The notes beneath the pieces were generated by a model. It did not search any database. It worked only from the letters and a program-made list of their open reading frames with translations, and was not told where the DNA came from. A stretch of DNA of 64,000 nt from Stegostoma tigrinum (taxonomy: Eukaryota): the NCBI RefSeq assembly GCF_030684315.1, contig NC_081404.1, forward strand, positions 13,583,140 through 13,647,139, given 5' to 3'. The position numbers were made by a program, and so were the translations under genes. Positions 8,064-59,566 of the stretch are shown here, in pieces (positions within the stretch are counted from its first letter, which is position 1; every line of letters begins with the position of its first letter).

Positions 8064-9135
8064 ATAATGGGAACTGCAGAGGCTGGAGAATCCAAGATAA
8101 CAAAGTGTGAGGCTGAATGAACACAGCAGGCCAAACAGCATCAGAGGAGCACAAAAGCTGACGTTTCGGGCCTAGACCCTTCATCAGAGAGGGGGATGGG
8201 GTGAGGGTTCTGGAATAAATAGGGAGGGAGGGAGGGGGAGGTGGACCGAAGATGGAGAGAAAAGAAGATAGGTGGAGAGGAGAGTATAGGTGGGGAGGTA
8301 GGGAGGGGATAGGTCAGTCCAGGGAAGACGGACAGGTCAAGGAGGTGGGATGAGGTTAGTAGGTAGCTGGGGGTGCGGCTTGGGGTGGGAGGAAGGGATG
8401 GGCGAGAGGAAGAACAGGTTAGGGAGGCAGAGACAGGCTGGGCTGGCTTTGGGATGCAGTGGGGGGAGGAGATGAGCTGGGCTGGTTGTGTGATGCAGTG
8501 GGGGGAGGGGATGAACTGGGCTGGTTTTGGGATGCGGTGGGGGAAGGGGAGATTTTGAAGCTGGTGAAGTCCACATTGATACCATTGGGCTGCAGGGTTG
8601 CCAAGCGGAATATGAGTTGCTGTTCCTGCAACCTTCGAGTGGCATCATTGTGGCAGTGCAGGAGGCCCATGATGGACATGTCATCAAGAGAATGGGAGGG
8701 GGAGTTGAAATGGTTTGCGACTGGGAGGTGCAGTTGTTTGTTGTGAACCGAGCGGAGGTGTTCTGCAAAGCGGTCCCCAAGCCTCCGCTTGGTTTCCCCA
8801 ATGTAGAGGAAGCCACACTGGGTACAATGGATACAGTATACCACATTGGCAGGTGTGCAGGTGAGCCTCTGCTTAATGTGGAAAGTCATCTTGGGGCCTG
8901 GGATGGGGGTGAGGGAGGAGGTGTGGGTGCAAGTGTAGCATTTCCTGCGGTTGCAGGGGAAGGTGCCGGGTGTGATGGGGTTTGAGGGCAGTGTGGAGCG
9001 AACAAGGGAGTCACGGAGAGAGTGGTCTGTCTGGAAAGCAGACAAGGGTGGGGATGGAAAAATGTCTTGGGTGGGGTTGGATTGTAGATGGCGGAAGTGT
9101 CAGAGGATGATGTGTTGTATCTGGAGGTTGGTGGG
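8064..9135 (-). mobile_element. Penelope-like element 3' fragment with open GIY-YIG endonuclease domain (ORF 8419-9045) and pLTR
   Basis: NVVYCIHCTQCGFLYIGETKRRLGDRFAEH...VANHFN...EQQLIFRLATLQPNGIN; pLTR containing a hammerhead core. Confidence 0.9.
8160..8187 (-). ncRNA. Minimal type I hammerhead ribozyme motif in Penelope pLTR
   Basis: CTGATGA-aGGGtctaggCCC-GAAAC-GTC on the minus strand. Confidence 0.65.
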
Positions 9136-37935: not shown

Positions 37936-39438
37936 AAATAGCAATTTATCGTCATTTTTACAAAAAAGGTGAGTAGTTTTACAAGTCACCACAGCACTGC
38001 ACAAACATTAATGTCAGAAGTCATAAATAAAAAGGGAAAGTAGTTAAAGTTCATCTCAGTTCATTTAATGGCTCTTGGGTTCAGGGTATGCCTGAAAAAC
38101 AGGATGAAACTACCATGAAACTGCTAGGCCAAGACTGCCACGCCAGACAGAGATGAGACCTCCATGCCAGGATTAGACCTCCAAGCTGGGCCATTTGAAG
38201 GTCCGAAAGCTGCCACTGAAGCAAGCACAAGACATAAGCACCAAGACGAGGTCTTCATGCCCACTGTTGGAATTCTGGAAGCCGCTGAAGAAGACCTCCA
38301 CAGCAGGACAGGAATGCTACTCCAGGCCGAGACCACCCCTCCTGAAACAAGACTGCCACACCGGGAGACTGCTACACCAGGGGATCGCCACACCGTCACA
38401 CCAGGAGATTGCCACACCGGGAGATTGCCACACCAGGAGACCGCCACACCGGGAGATTGCCACACCGGGAGAGTGCCACACCTGGAGACTGCCACACCGG
38501 GAGATTACCACACCTGGAGACTGCCACACTGGAAGACTGCCACACCTGGAGACTGCCACACCGAGAGACTGCCACACCGGGAGATTGCCACACCGGGAGA
38601 TTGCCACACCGGGAGAGTGCCACACCCGTAGACTGCCACACTGGGAGATTGCCACATTTGGAGATTGCCATACCGGGAGATTGCCACACCCGGAAACCAC
38701 CACACCCAGAGATTACCACAGTTGGAGATTGCCACACTGGGAGACTGCCACACCCGGAGATTGCCACACCAGGAGACTGCCACACCGGGCGATTGCCACA
38801 CCCGGAGACTGCCACACCAGGAGATTGCCACACCCCGGAGATTGCCACACCCGGAGATTGCCACACCAGGAGATTGCCACACCGGGAGACTGCCACAGTT
38901 GGAGATTGCCACACTGGGAGATTGCCACACCTGGAGACCACCACAACCAGAGATTGCCACATTTGGAGATTGCCACACCGGGAGACTCCACACCGGGGAT
39001 TGCCACACCGGGAGATTGCCACACCGGGAGACTGCCACACCTGGAGATTGCCACACCCGGAGACTGCCACACCCGGAGACTGCCACACCCGGAGACTGCC
39101 ACACTGGGAGACTGCCACACCCGGAGACTGCCACACTGGGAGACCGCCACATTGGTAGATTGTCCCAGGAGACCGCCCAACCAGGCCTGTACTGCCATTA
39201 CGGACCGTTGGAAACCACCTCGTCACTTGGCCTAGGCCTGGAGAAGACACCTTCCGCTGAACTCGTTAAAAGAAAGTAAGGTTCCGTAGTAAATAGAAAA
39301 ATTTTAAAAAGCATGCAAAGAAATCAAAAGGAAAGTGGACTGAGTAGGCGAGCTCCGGGCTCCTGGACTGAGGATCCTGCACATTGCCCTGCTCCCTCGC
39401 CACCATCTTGAAAAGAAATTTAAATATCATTATCAAGG
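37936..39438 (-). mobile_element. About 1.5-kb non-autonomous insertion carrying the minisatellite, inserted into CR1
   Basis: CR1 text resumes after it; possible TSD atatta at 37930-37935 and 39439-39444; CAAGATGGTGGC near its inferred 5' end. Confidence 0.6.
38350..39160. repeat. Minisatellite, 16-bp unit, consensus about GCCACACC(G/C)GGAGA(C/T)T, roughly 50 copies
   Basis: Read directly; explains the overlapping repetitive ORFs in all six frames. Confidence 0.97.
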
Positions 39439-45669: not shown

Positions 45670-48035
45670 TAATTCTCTGATGCCTCTACTTCCTCAGAAG
45701 GTGAGGGAAATTCAGCATGTCCACAATAACTCTTACCAATTTTTACAGATGCACCATAGAAAGCATCATATCTGGATGCATCACAGCTTGGTATGGGCAA
45801 CTGCTCTGCCCAAGAGTGCAAGAATCTATAGAGAGTTGCGAACACAGCTCAGTCCATCACAAAAACCAGCCTCCCATCCATTGACTCTATACTTCTTGCT
45901 GCCTCAGAAAAGCAAACAACTTAATCAAAGATTCCTTCAACTTCACTTCAACATACCACTGTGTTCCCTGGGCAACAGTCACAGTTTCTGTCACAGTGTT
46001 CCATTGAGTCTCAGCGTGAACTCGAAGAACAACATCTCATTTTCCACTTGGGGACCCTGCAGCCTCTAGGACTCAACATTGAGTTCGATAACTTTAGAGC
46101 CTGATTCTGTCCTTCCATCAGGCAGAGATACAAGCATTTGAAAACACATATCAGGGGATTCAAGAACAGCGTCTTCCCTGTCATTATCAGCCTTCTGAAC
46201 AGACCTTTCATACTCAAGGTTTTTGAGAAGATTTGTGACTCAGGTTGTTGATGTGGTTGTAGACTTGCTTGCTGAGTTGGTAAGTTTGTTTGCAGATGTT
46301 TCATCACCACACTAGTTAACATCATCATTGCATCTCCAGTTAAGCGTCGGTGTTCTGCCCCACATGCTATTTATGTGTCTTGGTTTTCTGGGATGGTTGG
46401 CATCACTTCTGGATTTGCTTCTTAGTGGTTGGAATATGGGCTGTATGGACTCTCAAGGTACACAAGCCGGATGTACCCCCTCAGATCCATAGTCTCACTG
46501 CCAGGTACACCAACATACAGACTAGCGTAAGAACTACAAGGAGACTTGAAACACCCAGTAGACAGCTCAAACCATTTCATCCACTCTGCCTAAGAATTCT
46601 TCAACATTGTCAAGGACACCAGAATAGATGAGGATGAGATCATGGTTTCCTTAGATGTGACTGCACTGTTTACCTCCATAAACATCCTCCTAGCTAAGGA
46701 AACACTAGCCTCACTACTAGACAGACCAGGGATCCAGACACCCAACATTACCAACACTGTCAGCAAAGACAGCACCCTCAAACTACTGGATCTGTGCCTC
46801 ACGACCCAACTCATCTTCAATGGCAAGATATACAGATTAATAAAAGAAGCTGTAATGCAAAGACTGGAATGGACAGCCCTTCCTACCATCCAACCAAAAC
46901 TAAAGATCCACTATGTGGATGAAACCTTTATAATTATCAAATGCTCTAAACTGGAGAAAACCCATCCACACATTAACAACATCCTCACCAGCATAAAGTT
47001 CGCCAGGGAAGAGGATAACAACAACAGACTTCCCTTCCTGGATGTAATGATTGAAAGTATGGCCAACGGTGAGCTCCAAACCAGCATTCACAGGAAGGCC
47101 ACCCACATAGATCAGGTACTCAACTACAATAGCAATCATCCCATTACCCGCAAACAGAGCTGCACCAAAACACTTTTCAAGTGAGCCACAACCGACACAC
47201 TGCAACACCCTGGAGCTGTGCAAAGCTGAGGAAGGACACCTATACAGCATCTTTAGAAACAACAGTTACTCAAAAAGTGTAGTCTGCCAATAACTACACA
47301 CAAGACCACAACAGGAAAACACACACACCCAGAGACCCTAGTCACCCTACCATACATTAAGGACATATCGGAAATGACCACCAGATTACTCTTCCCCCTA
47401 GGAATCATGGTAGCCCACAAACTGACAGCTATGCTACGATGAGAATAAAAGGTCTGACATCCTCAACTAATAGAACCGATGTTATTTACCAGATACTGTG
47501 CAAAGACTGCCGAAAGCTTTACACAGGGCAAACCGGAGGAAACGAGCCATCAGGATTCATGAACACCAATTAGCCAACGAGACGTGACCAACTATCACTC
47601 ATTTCAATACACATGGACAAAGAAGGACACCAGCTCGACTGGGACAAAGTAGCTATCCTAGGACAAGCCAAGCAAAGACACACACGACGATTCCTGGAGG
47701 CCCGGCATTCAAACTGGAATCCCGTTAAAAAATGTGCAAAACTGGACCCCAATATACCAACCACTAAGAAACAAATCCAGAAGTGATGCCACTGACCCCA
47801 GCAAACTAAGACACATAAATAACAAGTGGGACAGAACACCAACGCTTCACTGGAGGTGCACTAATGAAGTTACCTAGTATGGTGACCTTTCTCTGCACCT
47901 TCTCTGTATCTGTAACACTATATTCTGCATTCTGTTCTATCACACTGATGTATTCATGTAAGGTATAATTTGCCTGGATAGCACGCAAAACAGTACTGTA
48001 TCTCGGTACATGTGACAATAACAAATCAAATCAAA
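45670..48035 (+). mobile_element. Rex/Babar-type LINE 3' fragment, itself interrupted twice
   Basis: LYFLRR...TLTNFYRCTIESIISGCITAWY motif; tail ggtacatgtgacaataacaaatcaaatcaaa. Confidence 0.75.
46216..47885 (+). mobile_element. Second Penelope-like element with RT remnants, GIY-YIG remnants and an inverted 5' pLTR
   Basis: MVSLDVTALFTSI, HYVDETFII, LPFLDV, HRKATHIDQVLNYNSNHP; VIYQILCKDC..YTGQTG; 46290-46440 is the reverse complement of 47750-47885. Confidence 0.88.
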
Positions 48036-50664: not shown

Positions 50665-50759
50665 TTAGCTGATGCGGACTGTCTCATCAGATACCAGTTT
50701 GCCATCAATGAGTTTCTGAGTGGTGACTACCGTTTTCTTGATAGTTTGTGAGGTGGCAC
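50665..50759 (-). CDS. krt18: krt18-like exon 8 coding part (tail, stop TAA)
   Basis: gaacag|(G)[30 protein letters not shown]; resembles the K18 tail QTIQKTTTRRIVDGKVVS. Confidence 0.92.
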
Positions 50760-52982
50760 CTGTTCATACAAAACAAAGAAAAATCAGATTGTGAGCAGGT
50801 ATGTTTGCAGACAAGAAACTTAACATACAATATGTTTCTAGCCTCGCTGGATGCATCACACATCCTTGTAGAATCTACTTGCTGCCACCCCACCCTCCCC
50901 AGTCTAAGCTGATTCATTTCAACAGAATGTGAAACAGGACAGATTACCAGCTGTATGGAGCAGGTGGAAATCTATCCGGTGGTATGTACAGCAGGGACAT
51001 TATAAAATTACATGTACAAATTCTCTCAATTAAATGATCTTACCAGAGGTTGACTCAACAAGTGCGCTGTAAAAACAAAAAAAGGAAAAGTGAGACAGAA
51101 ATAAATCAGCTCAGTGCTATTACACACATAAAACCAAGGTGTGGATGGGGGATTTCACAACTTTGCCATAATGGTCATTACTTTTTCTACCTTTTCTACT
51201 GATGCTACTTACTTGATGTCTTCTCCATCCAGCAGACGTTTGTATGTTGCTATTTCAGCCTCAAGTTTCATCTTCACGTTCAAGAGACTTTCATACTCTC
51301 TGACCTGGGACTGCATATCACTGCGCATCTGAAACAGATCTCCCTCTAGTTTGGCAATCACGCCATTTAGGCTCTGCAGCTCCATATCATATCTCAGTTC
51401 TGTATCTTTGAGAGTGCCTTCCAGTGAGTTTTTCTAGAATAAAATAAAAATACAGGCTCAACTTTTTACTAGAATATATATGATCTTGCAATTAGATCAG
51501 TCAGTATTGCATGCAATGTGTGATGTGAGGCTTTGGTTTGTGTTACACTTCTTCAGAATGGAGTGCTTACCATGCTTTGAAGAGTCTCCAGCTCAACGTC
51601 CAGAGACTGTACCTGGCGGTGCAGTTCAGTGACTTGTACCTTTGCACCTCGCAGTTCTTCAGTATTGTGTTCGACTTCAACTTTGTAGTTATCTATCTGC
51701 AATAAGAAGTAATGTAATTAAGTGACAGCACTTTTCACCAGTGTTCACAAGATGTTATATTTTGAGAATATTTGATCAAATTGCAATCCCATGCAATTCT
51801 GTGTGCTTGGAAGATTAAATTGAGTCAAATGTTATCAGTGGAAGCATGTGGAATTGTGTAATTCTGTGGAAATAAAAGCACTTTGTTCACCTGGTTCTTG
51901 TACCAGTTCTCTGCATCATCCTTGTTTCTCTGTGCCACCTCTTCATATTGATTTCTGATCTCAGCAATGATCTTAGCCAGATCTGGACCTTGAGGAGAGT
52001 CCACTTCAACCTGCACACTCGAGTCAGTGATCTGGGAGCGAAGAGCTTTGACTTCCTGTAGAATTAAAAGACAATTTTCATCCATTATTACCGAACTAGC
52101 CATATCCTGCTCCATATCCAGAACTCAAAGGATTGGAGAGTCAAAATGGAGCAGAATTTCATAGCTCATTCCCATTAGTGAATGCTATCTGTGTTATATT
52201 TTATTAATTTATCTCTATTATTGCTTTCATACAGAAATTACTTGTGAACCAATAATCTGGTTTCCCAACTGTTTACTGCAATCTCCCTCCTTACAATTAT
52301 CCCATAGCTCCTTGTCAACAAGAGACAACTCTGTGGAACTTACGTCTTCATGGTTCTTCCTGATGTAGATGAGCTCCTCTTTGAGAGACTCGATCTCACC
52401 TTCCAGGTGCAGGCGCCCAATGTTGGTGTCGTCGATGACTTTGCGCAGTCCGTTGATGTCATTCTCCACAGACTGCCTGATGCTCAGTTCGGACTCCCAC
52501 CTGTGCAGGGGAAAGACAAACAGGTCAGGTCAGAGGAGCTGTGGTGGGTGGGGAAGGTATTCCCTCACTGATCACAGTGGGGTTCAACCATGTGGACATT
52601 ATGCACGTGGGACAGATGGGGGATTGAAGTACTGAAACAAAAAGACCACCTTCCATCCAAAACTATATCTGTGACATGGTTTAATAAGTGTATAAGAGCA
52701 CATGTTAACATCCTCATGACACAGTCTTAGTATCCATCCCTCTGAGTCAGAAAAGCGAGATTCAAGTCCCAGCTGCTCGAGGGGTGTTCACAATAGCTCT
52801 GAACAGGTTGGTTAGAAACTACCTACAATGTTGACTCTAAGGACTGTTGTGTCCTAATGTAGTGTCCCTGCCTCAGGTCCAGAAGGCCTAAATTCAAATC
52901 TCACCTACCCCACCCCTCTCTCCCGCCCCCAAAGTATATCATAACAGGCCTGAAGGTAACTGGGAGGATATGTGTATGGGTA

Positions 52983-53045
<63 letters not shown>

Positions 53046-53785
53046 GGAACTCACTTCACTCTGAAGTCGTCAGCAGCCAGGCGAGCATTATCGATCTGAA
53101 GTACCAAACGAGCATTTTCGATGGTCATATCATAGACCTGAAGGATTGAAACGCATACATTGATTAAAGTGTCATTTCGTGTATTTTTTTAAAGTTAAAG
53201 ATGAGCCAGTGTGGGGAGGATGGGTTCCGCAACAGCAAGCCTCTGTGCCAGGTATTGTGTAACAGGAGAGAAGCTTGAACAGCTTGGGGCTGGGGAGAAT
53301 CGTTTGGAGGCGAGGATAACGGCGGCTAGTCTCCTCTCCTTCCCTCTCGGTGCACAGTGTGCCAGCAGAGCCCCCTATCCATAACCCAACAATCAGCTAA
53401 ATGTTACCTCTTTGCGGAGGTCACTCAGCGGCTTCTCGTAGACGCTCCAGTCACGGACGCTGGCTCCCCTGGACTCCAGATGCTCCTTGATCTGCAGCTC
53501 CAGGTTGGCGTTGGCCGTCTCCAAGCTGCGCACTTTCTCCAGGTAGCTGGCCAGCCGGTCGTTCAGGCCTTGCATGGTCTCTTTCTGGTTGCTGACCCCC
53601 CCGATGCTGATGCCGATGCCGGCGCCGCTGACCATGCCTACGGGCCGGGCTATCGACGCCCGGCTGACGGACACTCTCTGGCCGAAGCCACTGATGCTGC
53701 TAGCGCTGGACTGCAGGGGCACAGAGCGCCGCAGGGACATGGGACCACCGTGAGTCGACAGCGAGGAATAACTTCTGAAACTCAT
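50665..53785 (-). CDS. krt18: Keratin type I cytoskeletal 18-like, complete gene; join(53408..53785,53055..53137,52344..52500,51891..52055,51571..51696,51213..51433,51044..51066,50665..50759); 1248 nt = 415 aa + stop
   Basis: Spliced translation keeps frame across all GT-AG introns. Motifs: [22 protein letters not shown] (coil 1A), [19 protein letters not shown] linker, [15 protein letters not shown] (helix termination), tail [13 protein letters not shown]18-type features: RVSVSR head, [24 protein letters not shown]. Exon sizes 83/157/165/126 match the K18 pattern. Confidence 0.93.
51044..51066 (-). CDS. krt18: krt18-like exon 7, 23-nt micro-exon
   Basis: Long polypyrimidine tract + cag|CGCACTTGTTGAGTCAACCTCTG|gtaaga. 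It is required to put the last exon in the frame encoding the K18-type tail. Confidence 0.85.
51213..51433 (-). CDS. krt18: krt18-like exon 6 (221 nt; coil 2B end)
   Basis: ttctag|[15 protein letters not shown]...[24 protein letters not shown]|gtaagt. Confidence 0.95.
51571..51696 (-). CDS. krt18: krt18-like exon 5 (126 nt)
   Basis: ttgcag|[42 protein letters not shown]|gtaagc. Confidence 0.94.
51891..52055 (-). CDS. krt18: krt18-like exon 4 (165 nt; L12 linker with VEVD caspase site)
   Basis: ctacag|[55 protein letters not shown]|gtgaac. Confidence 0.95.
52344..52500 (-). CDS. krt18: krt18-like exon 3 (157 nt)
   Basis: gcacag|[52 protein letters not shown]|gtaagt. Confidence 0.95.
52984..53045. 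repeat. (TG)26 followed by short (AG)n microsatellite, krt18 intron 2
   Basis: Read directly from the sequence. Confidence 0.97.
53055..53137 (-). CDS. krt18: krt18-like exon 2 (83 nt)
   Basis: ccttcag|[27 protein letters not shown](K)|gtgagt. Confidence 0.95.
53408..53785 (-). CDS. krt18: krt18-like exon 1 (head + coil 1A, 126 codons)
   Basis: ATG at 53785; MSFRSY...LSDLRKE, then donor GTAACA. Confidence 0.95.
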
Positions 53786-54182
53786 CTTGAAAGGGGAAGG
53801 CGGGGGGGTTTGGTGCTTGGAGCTGCACTTCCTACGAGAACTAGCTGGAGAAGATCAATAAGTCACTCACACCAAGTGCAGACACTTTATACCTTCCGGC
53901 TATCGCCAATTGGCTTAAAGTGGCGTCCAGTAACCATGGTAATCCTTTCTGACACCGTTCTTGTCCAATGGGGAACCGACGGAATTTGCCTATATACCAC
54001 ACGCCGTCTAACGGGAGCACATTTGCCTCGGGGCAAACACCAGAAAGGGGTTTCTGAGATTGGACTTTTTCGTTTGGCACCCCCCCTAGCTCAAGACCTG
54101 CCCCACTCTTCCAAAATAATCCAAACTTTGTGTTTTGTTACCCCGATCTTGTGATAAACCAGAGAGACAGAAAGAGACCACT
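53786..54182. promoter_or_regulatory. Putative bidirectional promoter and 5'UTRs shared by the two keratin genes
   Basis: TATAAA on minus strand at 53886-53891; ETS-type CCGGAAG (minus) at about 53893-53899; palindrome GCCAATTGGC at 53905-53914; CCAAT at 53965-53969; TATATA at 53991-53996; ATTGG at 54059-54063; no ATG between 53997 and 54182. Confidence 0.75.
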
Positions 54183-54428
54183 ATGTCCAGCCGTAGCTCG
54201 TTCCGTTCCCGTTCCCACTTCAGCAGCCAGTCTTACACCCCCGGCTTGTCCATGCAACGGGTCAGCGTGGTCCGGGGCGCTCAGCGACTGGGTAACGTGC
54301 CCCCTCTGGGCAAAATACCCGCCGAGAATCCACGCTTCGAGGGCGGCCAGGAATTCCAGGAGCTGCGTATCCGCGAGAAGGAACAGATCAAAGGGCTGAA
54401 TAACCAGTTCGCCAGTTTCATCGACAAG
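54183..54428 (+). CDS. Type II keratin (K8-like) exon 1, 82 codons
   Basis: actATG start; MSSRSSFRSRSHFSSQSY...EKEQIKGLNNQFASFIDK|gtaaaa. This is the type II coil-1A signature with the canonical intron after FIDK. Confidence 0.9.
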
Positions 54429-55012
54429 GTAAAACCAAAACATGTTTTTTTTTATTTTAAAAAAAGCACAAGCTTGAGTTAAACATTCAACTTTAAAATG
54501 AACCGCGCTGAAAGTATGACAAAATGCTAACTGTGCAATCTAACGCATTTTCAAGGTGTTAAACTAACCGCTGGAGCAGTTTTTTCTAAAAAAAACAAAC
54601 GTGTAATGTGTACATAAACTCAAACTGAGCTCCTGTAGAAACAGGTAGCCCCAGGGCGATTGCACCTGTAATAATGTGAAGCATCTTCTTTCACAGTGAC
54701 GCCCTAATTGGGTTGAAGGTGGCACCAAAAATGAGCCACAGATGTAAAGTACCCTTTGATATTAATTCCACTGATTGCAGTATGACCGCCCGAGACAACT
54801 GTCATTTTGTCTTTGACCTTCACGTACCCCTGGAATGAAGACAGGTGCATTTAAAAAAAAACCAAAGAACTGTCGATGCTGGAAACATGAAACATAAACA
54901 GAAATTGCTGGAAAAACTCGGCGATGCTGCCGGGCCTGCCGAGTTTCCCCAGCAATTTCTGCATTTTTAATTAAAAAAATGTCACGCAGTATGCATGACC
55001 TTATGTTTTAAG

Positions 55013-55221
55013 GTGCGGGCACTGGAACACCGCAACAAGCAGCTAGAAATGCACTGGAAACTGCTGCAGGAGAAAGGTGTGCGCAGCTCCAACATTGACC
55101 AACTCTTCCAAGTTTATTCCAACAACCTCAAACAGCAGATCGATACCTTAGCCCAGGAGAAGCTTCGCCTGCAATCTGACCTGGAGGGCATGCAGGGAAT
55201 GGTGGAAGACTACAAGACCAA
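55013..55221 (+). CDS. Type II keratin (K8-like) exon 2, 209 nt; gene presumably continues beyond the window
   Basis: ttttaag|VRALEHRNKQLEMHWKLLQEKGVRSSNIDQLFQVYSNNLKQQIDTLAQEKLRLQSDLEGMQGMVEDYKT(K)|gtaagt. The 209-nt size and sequence resemble K8 exon 2. Confidence 0.92.
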
Positions 55222-58525: not shown

Positions 58526-59566
58526 AGAACATAGAACAGTACAGCACAGAACAGGCCCTTCAGCCCACGATGTTGTGCCGACCATTGATCCTCAAGTATG
58601 CACCCTCAAATTTCTGTGACCATATGCATGTCCAGCAGTCTCTTAAATGTCCCCAATGACCTTGCTTCCACAACTGCTGCTGGCAACGCATTCCATGCTC
58701 TCACAACTCTGTGTAAAGAACCCGCCTCTGACATCCCCTCTATACTTTCCTCCAACCAACTTAAAACTATGACCTCTCGTGTTAGCCATTTCTGCCCTGG
58801 GAAATAGTCTCTGGCTATCAACTCTATATCTATGCCTCTCATTATCTTGTATACCTCAATTCGGTCCCCTCTCCTCCTCCTTTTCTCCAATGAAAAGAGT
58901 CCGAGCTCAGTCAACCTCTCTTCATAAGATAAGCCTTCCAGTCCAGGCAGCATCCTGGTAAACCTCCTCTGAACCCTCTCCAAAGCATCCACATCTTTCC
59001 TATAATAGGGCGCCCAGAACTGGACACAGTATTCCAAGTGCGGTCTTACCAAAGTTTTACAGAGCTGCAACAAGATCTCACGACTCTTAAACTCAATCCC
59101 CCTGCTAATGAAAGCCAAAACACCATATGCTTTCTTAACAACCCTGTCCACTTGGGTGGCCATTTTAAGGGATCTATGTATCTGCACATCAAGATCCCTC
59201 TGTTCCTCCACACTGCCAAGAATCCTATCTTTAATCCTGTACTCAGCTTTCAAATTCGACCTTCCAAAATGCATCACCTCGCATTTATCCAGGTTGAACT
59301 CCATCTGCCACCTCTCAGCCCATCTCTGCATCCTGTCAATGTCCCGCTGCAGCCTACAACAGCCCTTTATACTGTCAACGACACCTCCAACCTTTGTGTC
59401 GTCTGCAAACTTGCTGACCCATCCTTCAATCCCCTCATCCAAGTCATTAATAAAAATTATAAACAGTAGAGGCCCAAGGACAGAGCCCTGTGGAACACCA
59501 CTCACCACTGACTTCCAGGCAGAATATTTTCCTTCTACTACCACTCACTGTCTTCTGTTGGCCAGC
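58526..59566 (-). mobile_element. Young 5'-truncated CR1 LINE with open RT C-terminus (ORF 58606-59544), antisense in type II keratin intron 2
   Basis: GVPQGSVLGPLLF, SKFADDTK, LVRPHLEYCVQFW; (TTCTATG)-type tail; possible TSD caattt at 58520-58525 and 59567-59572. Confidence 0.93.

Follow-up and report, generated by a model that had tools for sequence, protein, structure and literature searches.

The linkage of the type I keratin gene KRT18 to the type II keratin cluster is an old oddity, and the reason why it has persisted head-to-head with KRT8 across vertebrates is unexplained. In the zebra shark (Stegostoma tigrinum), the window analysed here (64,000 nucleotides of contig NC_081404.1, positions 13,583,140 to 13,647,139 of the forward strand) carries a divergent type I/type II keratin pair with less than 400 bp between the two start codons, which raises the question of whether a single bidirectional promoter serves both partners and whether this compact state is the ancestral one. 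If it is, a compact shared ancestral promoter would supply a concrete reason for the pairing, namely an element of ~400 bp for co-expression of the first heteropolymer, and a bidirectional promoter would have been dismantled in one lineage while the gene order was kept; if the two promoters are independent, the finding reduces to a mere measurement on a published gene pair. The coding features of the pair in the window are as follows.

50665..53785, minus strand: coding span of krt18 (type I keratin), 8 exons, 415 aa, intact, GT-AG introns
53785-53408, 53137-53055, 52500-52344, 52055-51891, 51696-51571, 51433-51213, 51066-51044 and 50759-50665, minus strand: krt18 exons
54183..55221, plus strand: krt8 (type II keratin) exons 1 (54183-54428) and 2 (55013-55221), with the remaining exons 3-9 past the window end

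The protein encoded by the krt18 gene, itself compact at 3.1 kb, shares 94% identity with whale shark K18 (P0001), with which it groups in the tree, and 79% with P0042, whose cluster includes the cloned Scyliorhinus stellaris K18 (CAA74980); the top matches in the protein search were all named K18 or K18-like. The shark K18 was identified by Schaffeld's group partly from its occurrence in simple epithelia (PMC1896152). The krt8 gene continues on the window contig (C64) after a 9,075-bp intron, with exons 3-9 at G000:C64:13647436-13654552, and as a whole comprises 9 exons encoding 437 aa, intact and with GT-AG introns. A type II pseudogene, considered in view of the absence of exons 3-9 from the window, was rejected since these exons are intact just past the window end. 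The K8 protein is identical at 437/437 residues to XP_048379378.1 of S. tigrinum (P0033) and shares 85% identity with the cloned S. stellaris K8 (CAA74981), the two forming a clade with support of 97/99. By identity and tree placement, the two genes are judged to be orthologues of the cloned shark K8 and K18, and hence true K18/K8 partners, which upholds the original prediction of a type I and a type II keratin partner lying head-to-head. The pair adjoins further type II genes, 10 more of which occur within 200 kb. Accessions for K18 and K8 are consecutive or near-consecutive in five of the six sharks with both listed (C. punctatum, C. plagiosum, Cetorhinus, S. torazame and Heptranchias, but not S. 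canicula), and this shows adjacency of the two genes in other sharks while saying nothing of their spacing.

The krt18 tail includes a 23-bp micro-exon (51044-51066), the shark gene having 8 exons compared with 7 listed for human KRT18. At window position 54274, in the K8 head, related sharks carry 21 extra bases, the S. tigrinum head being the shorter. A single residue at the exon 8/9 junction (G000:C64:13653459-13654552) separates the two RefSeq isoforms of K8 (438 and 437 aa), a difference consistent with a tandem splice site.

Re-reading of the start codons placed the A of the krt18 ATG at 53785 (minus strand) and that of the krt8 ATG at 54183 (plus strand), confirming the predicted 397 bases between them. 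The spacer is single-copy in a genome search and, together with the transcript ends described below, presents the following features.

53858..53860, minus strand: putative K18 transcription start (A at 53859), suggested by one low-depth contig
53886-53891, minus strand: TATAAA, at -32 to -27 from the putative K18 start, likely the K18 TATA box
53893-53899, minus strand: ETS-type CCGGAAG, abutting TATAAA directly upstream, a candidate site (P=0.13 in shuffles)
53905-53914, both strands: GCCAATTGGC palindrome, two overlapping CCAAT boxes on opposite strands
53965-53969, plus strand: CCAAT box in mid spacer
53991-53996, strand not assigned: TATATA, ~125-130 bases upstream of the apparent K8 start
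54059-54063, minus strand: fourth CCAAT box (ATTGG), at about -60 from the apparent K8 start
54078-54086, plus strand: CACCC/C-run, at about -40 from the apparent K8 start
54118..54129, plus strand: apparent K8 transcription start region, suggested by contig beginnings from three studies of relatives

All of the motifs named in the original prediction (TATAAA, TATATA, CCGGAAG, the CCAAT palindrome and a further CCAAT) were found at their places, and the fourth CCAAT box at 54059-54063 had been overlooked. The CACCC/C-run is one that we take to be KLF/Sp-like. Two NF-Y complexes cannot occupy overlapping CCAAT boxes, given the NF-Y footprint, and the palindrome GCCAATTGGC is therefore probably a single NF-Y site usable in either orientation. 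Among 3000 dinucleotide shuffles of the spacer, two TATAWA words (P=0.011) and four CCAAT boxes (P=0.014) were uncommon, and an ETS site (P=0.13) and any 10-bp palindrome (P=0.25), each taken by itself, were within chance; since the motifs were picked after being seen, this enrichment is only modest. When 294 kb was tiled with 740 windows of 397 bp, at least two TATAWA words occurred in 33 windows and at least four CCAAT boxes in 11, with both in one, possibly the spacer itself. The spacer lies within a CpG-rich patch, the CpG observed/expected ratio being 0.65-1.04 over 53401-54600 compared with 0.19-0.56 in windows 52001-53600.

Hints of the transcription starts came from contigs of related sharks aligned to 53600-54340 (4 of 22 listed runs, none of the 22 recorded as RNA and those aligned only guessed to be so, their contigs being less than 90% alike). 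On the K8 side, contigs in three of the four runs (three studies, two organisms) have their first bases at 54129, 54126 and 54120, and none is listed with a loose end. Two of these contigs are 1575 and 1589 nt long, matching the predicted spliced K8 mRNA from 54120 (~1580 nt, or ~1600 nt with the 21-nt insertion of the relatives). A spliced K8 5' UTR was rejected as an account of these beginnings, there being no AG acceptor in 54096-54160 and no loose ends listed at the contig ends. The apparent K8 start, which has no TATA at -30, lies ~100 bp further downstream than the ~54020 originally predicted, a shift that these contigs suggest rather than fix. On the K18 side, just one of the four runs gave a contig (151 nt, depth 3.5); its end lies at 53857 and is followed, on the plus strand, by a loose T and seven C. 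Of the other runs, one gave no contig at all and two gave none on this side, blanks that filtering may account for. We infer that this tail represents A-53859 preceded by non-templated G, as in template-switching libraries, a genomic G-run in the relative being the other possibility. A start at 53859 would lie 32 bases past the initial T of TATAAA, the usual distance from TATA box to start, and it lends weak support to the prediction of a K18 start at ~53860. The interval 53875-54099 is uncovered by any related-shark contig in the four runs aligned, and the contig ends on both sides fall within the spacer ~260 bp apart, with the exact positions approximate. In related sharks, the 5' UTR on either side aligns. 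Divergent starts less than 1 kb apart are the operational definition of a bidirectional promoter, and it is to such starts that these ends point, if loosely as regards their exact positions.

H2A/H2B and COL4A1/COL4A2 are heteromer subunits encoded head-to-head on divergent promoters, and in this they resemble K8/K18; those two pairs keep a compact layout in mammals, whereas the K8/K18 spacer is wide in 9/9 tetrapods examined. Histone bidirectional promoters have been validated in medaka (PMC11676430), and divergent pairs with sub-kb spacing account for ~10% of human and 13% of medaka genes, their promoters being mostly TATA-less and enriched in NF-Y and GABP sites (PMC3082894, PMC11676430). 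Set against such a typical bidirectional promoter, the shark spacer shows the CpG content (0.65-1.04) and the four CCAAT boxes (P=0.014), but its ETS site could be due to chance (P=0.13) and its K18 side carries a TATA box. The Mrps12/Sarsm promoter likewise packs four CCAAT boxes into a very short divergent spacer, and NF-Y binding and activity have been shown there by reporter assay, EMSA and ChIP (PMC1802594). That pair consists of mitochondrial translation genes, whereas the shark genes encode structural partners and have a TATA box on one side of their putative shared promoter.

From this arrangement of motifs and contig ends, we consider it probable that two core promoters ~260 bp apart switch on K8 and K18 together, likely sharing CCAAT/NF-Y and ETS elements. 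The K18 core promoter would be of the TATA type and that of K8 probably TATA-less; the CCAAT/NF-Y- and ETS-type elements between them may serve both, and one CpG-rich patch of open chromatin may switch on both partner genes in the same cells. Bidirectional promoters typically carry NF-Y and GABP/ETS motifs (PMC3082894, PMC1802594), which speaks for this reading. The promoter is a less likely source of the exact 1:1 balance of the proteins than the post-translational degradation of chains left without a partner. When K8 or K18 is expressed singly, it is more ubiquitinated and undergoes degradation (PMC2174842); the human genes, although 44 kb apart, correlate across tissues with a rho of 0.89 (PMC8733776); and in mice a K18 transgene carrying 2.5 kb of 5' flank shows correct expression with no K8 in its vicinity (PMC2116298). 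A shared promoter is thus unnecessary for 1:1 filaments, and the 'hard-wired stoichiometry' of the original prediction is overstated.

The tetrapod KRT8/KRT18 locus contains the orthologous genes in the same divergent orientation as the shark pair, but at distances of 4.5 kb (chicken) to 104 kb (anole), compared with 0.4 kb in the shark. These distances were obtained by subtracting published start-codon coordinates by hand, and all nine tetrapods exceed 4 kb: chicken 4,546, alligator 20,905, turtle 52,626, snake 56,488, Xenopus tropicalis 61,676 and anole 104,491 bp, the last being less sure as the anole K8 entry is short (PMC7086170), and dog 28,404 bp, horse 29,890 bp and human ~44 kb, or ~23 kb from an alternative KRT8 first exon (PMC5573215). 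Other keratin gaps in the S. tigrinum genome are also far longer than the spacer (10.7-16.1 kb for the period of a type II array, 40 kb from K8 to that array).

The gene pair and its orientation are already known. Two head-to-head krt18/krt8 pairs, present from lamprey and elephant shark to tetrapods, were proposed as the ancestral keratin set by Kimura and Nikaido (bioRxiv 10.1101/2020.05.06.063123), which answers, as far as the head-to-head arrangement goes, the doubt in the original prediction about a shark precedent, this arrangement having been published for a chondrichthyan (elephant shark) as well as for lamprey. Their krt18.1/krt8 (keratin cluster 2) and krt18.2/krt8 (subcluster 4) appear to be the same two divergent pairs as in S. 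tigrinum, and the window pair, which corresponds to that of cluster 2, stands at the head of the type II cluster; the flanking markers eif4b and faim2 are reported there as absent in elephant shark. The main text of that preprint gives no spacing and is without the words 'promoter', 'bidirectional', 'intergenic' or 'distance', although its supplementary gene locations may allow the spacing to be derived. A literature search, with subscription papers outside its scope, returned no report of a compact K8/K18 promoter or of its spacing, and extracts from a lamprey and hagfish keratin paper (PMC11850651) yielded no usable coordinates for a K8/K18 pair. What we did not find in print is the sub-kb spacing of both paralogous pairs, as against 4.5-104 kb in tetrapods.

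The second of these pairs emerged from a genome-wide search for filament domains, which identified a type II gene (minus strand) and a type I gene (plus strand) on contig C9 with ATGs at 104172770 and 104173528, 757 bases apart (G000:C9:104172567-104173896). We infer its identity with the krt18.2/krt8 pair published for subcluster 4. The type I gene is annotated as K18-like across sharks and rays, and such K18-like proteins, with the C9 gene represented in the tree by its whale shark orthologue, form a long-branched clade apart from the window K18 (96/100). The Heterodontus orthologues of the pair have consecutive accessions and lie on a single contig. A Hox9 gene is also present on C9; matches in the Hox9 search fell on C2, C9 and C41, with none on C64. 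The C9 contig is 108 Mb long and its genes have kb-long introns, yet the pair is less than 1 kb apart; the two pairs thus both keep sub-kb spacers in a genome of 3.2 Gb with nearby introns of up to 9 kb. A tandem repeat of 36-37-bp units occupies 402 of the 757 bp, between the type II ATG and the putative promoter; a coding role for it is unlikely, the head of the Heterodontus orthologue having the same length and an equivalent start position. The C9 spacer contains TATAAT (plus strand), a weak TTAAAAG (minus strand), two CCAAT boxes and two GC boxes, but alignment with the window spacer gave a score of 23 against 21.1 +/- 2.8 for shuffled sequence, indicating no sequence similarity between the two. 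The C9 type II gene is also without the usual exon 2/3 intron, having one exon of 270 bp (G000:C9:104165710-104165979, minus strand) in place of 209+61.

The main rival to two co-activated core promoters with shared elements is a pair of independent unidirectional promoters placed back to back, under which the spacer is short by inheritance and separate or intronic enhancers bring about co-expression. K18 would then use the TATA box, the ETS site and the palindrome, and K8 the CCAAT box at 54059 and the C-run. A separate CCAAT box does stand at about -50 to -60 from each inferred start, and the tetrapod pair functions at 4.5-104 kb (human rho 0.89); that two short independent promoters might suffice also follows from the mammalian K18 transgene, which works alone (PMC2116298). 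We nevertheless regard independence as rather unlikely, as the retention of both paralogous pairs below 1 kb amid introns of up to 9 kb suggests a cost of widening. The symmetrical arrangement of the original prediction, in which facing TATA boxes at 53891 and 53991 direct starts at ~53860 and ~54020 and a hard-wired 1:1 output, draws on the presence of two TATAWA words in 397 bp (P=0.011), on a plus strand with no ATG between 53969 and 54183, and on a K18 half that fits the related-shark contig end. Its K8 half fares poorly. The K8 contigs of three studies start at 54120-54129, with 53875-54099 uncovered, and splicing cannot account for these beginnings since 54096-54160 offers no AG acceptor. 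TATATA is probably not the K8 core TATA box because of those same contig beginnings, from which it lies at about -125, and against the consensus TATAWAWR it has one mismatch on the minus strand and two on the plus strand, a better minus-strand fit. The pairing of the two TATA boxes ~100 bp apart therefore probably fails and, with lone K8 or K18 being ubiquitinated and degraded in any case (PMC2174842), the symmetrical arrangement as a whole seems very improbable.

It is also improbable, in our estimation, that the spacer is compact merely through some recent or local quirk of the species or contig and is under no constraint. The spacing was measured in one shark, the K18 gene is compact as well, and in a table of 1737 divergent medaka pairs none bears the name 'krt' or 'keratin', though many of the genes there are unnamed LOC entries; however, the second pair, on a different large contig, is likewise less than 1 kb apart, and the 5' UTRs on both sides of the window spacer align in relatives.

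The second compact pair makes an old origin of compactness plausible. This part of the claim that the compact state is ancestral for K8/K18 gains ground, while the spacing itself comes from one shark. A compact ancestor is favoured because the two paralogous pairs are both compact, albeit in the one species measured, so that a shark-specific compaction is possible. We tentatively propose, as a scenario that may or may not hold, that the keratin locus from which those of vertebrates derive consisted of one type I/type II pair served by a single sub-kb bidirectional promoter, that sharks keep this layout in both copies from an early genome duplication, and that tetrapods spread the partners 10- to 260-fold, coordination having moved to separate enhancers.

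Beyond the pair, nine tandem copies of a type II keratin gene with a glycine-rich head lie 48-156 kb past the window (G000:C64:13694865-13803650), with 99.2-99.5% identity to copy 1 over ~2.9 kb and a period of 10.7-16.1 kb; a TATA-like word, CATAAAA, precedes the gene in the copies whose flank was inspected. The cluster ends with a divergent type II keratin in the opposite orientation (G000:C64:13822268-13831246, minus strand), which has a TATATATAAAG box; a type I partner did not turn up in the 45.9 kb examined upstream of it. Elsewhere, two similar type I keratin genes lie tail-to-tail at G000:C45:11272107-11308097. Within the window, a tandem repeat at 38128-39279 has long open frames on both strands and is probably a non-coding minisatellite. 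The fragments at 58606-59544 (minus strand), 46594-47184 (plus strand) and 8419-9099 (minus strand) presumably resemble LINE and Penelope-type retroelements, and one such retroelement-like fragment sits in K8 intron 2.
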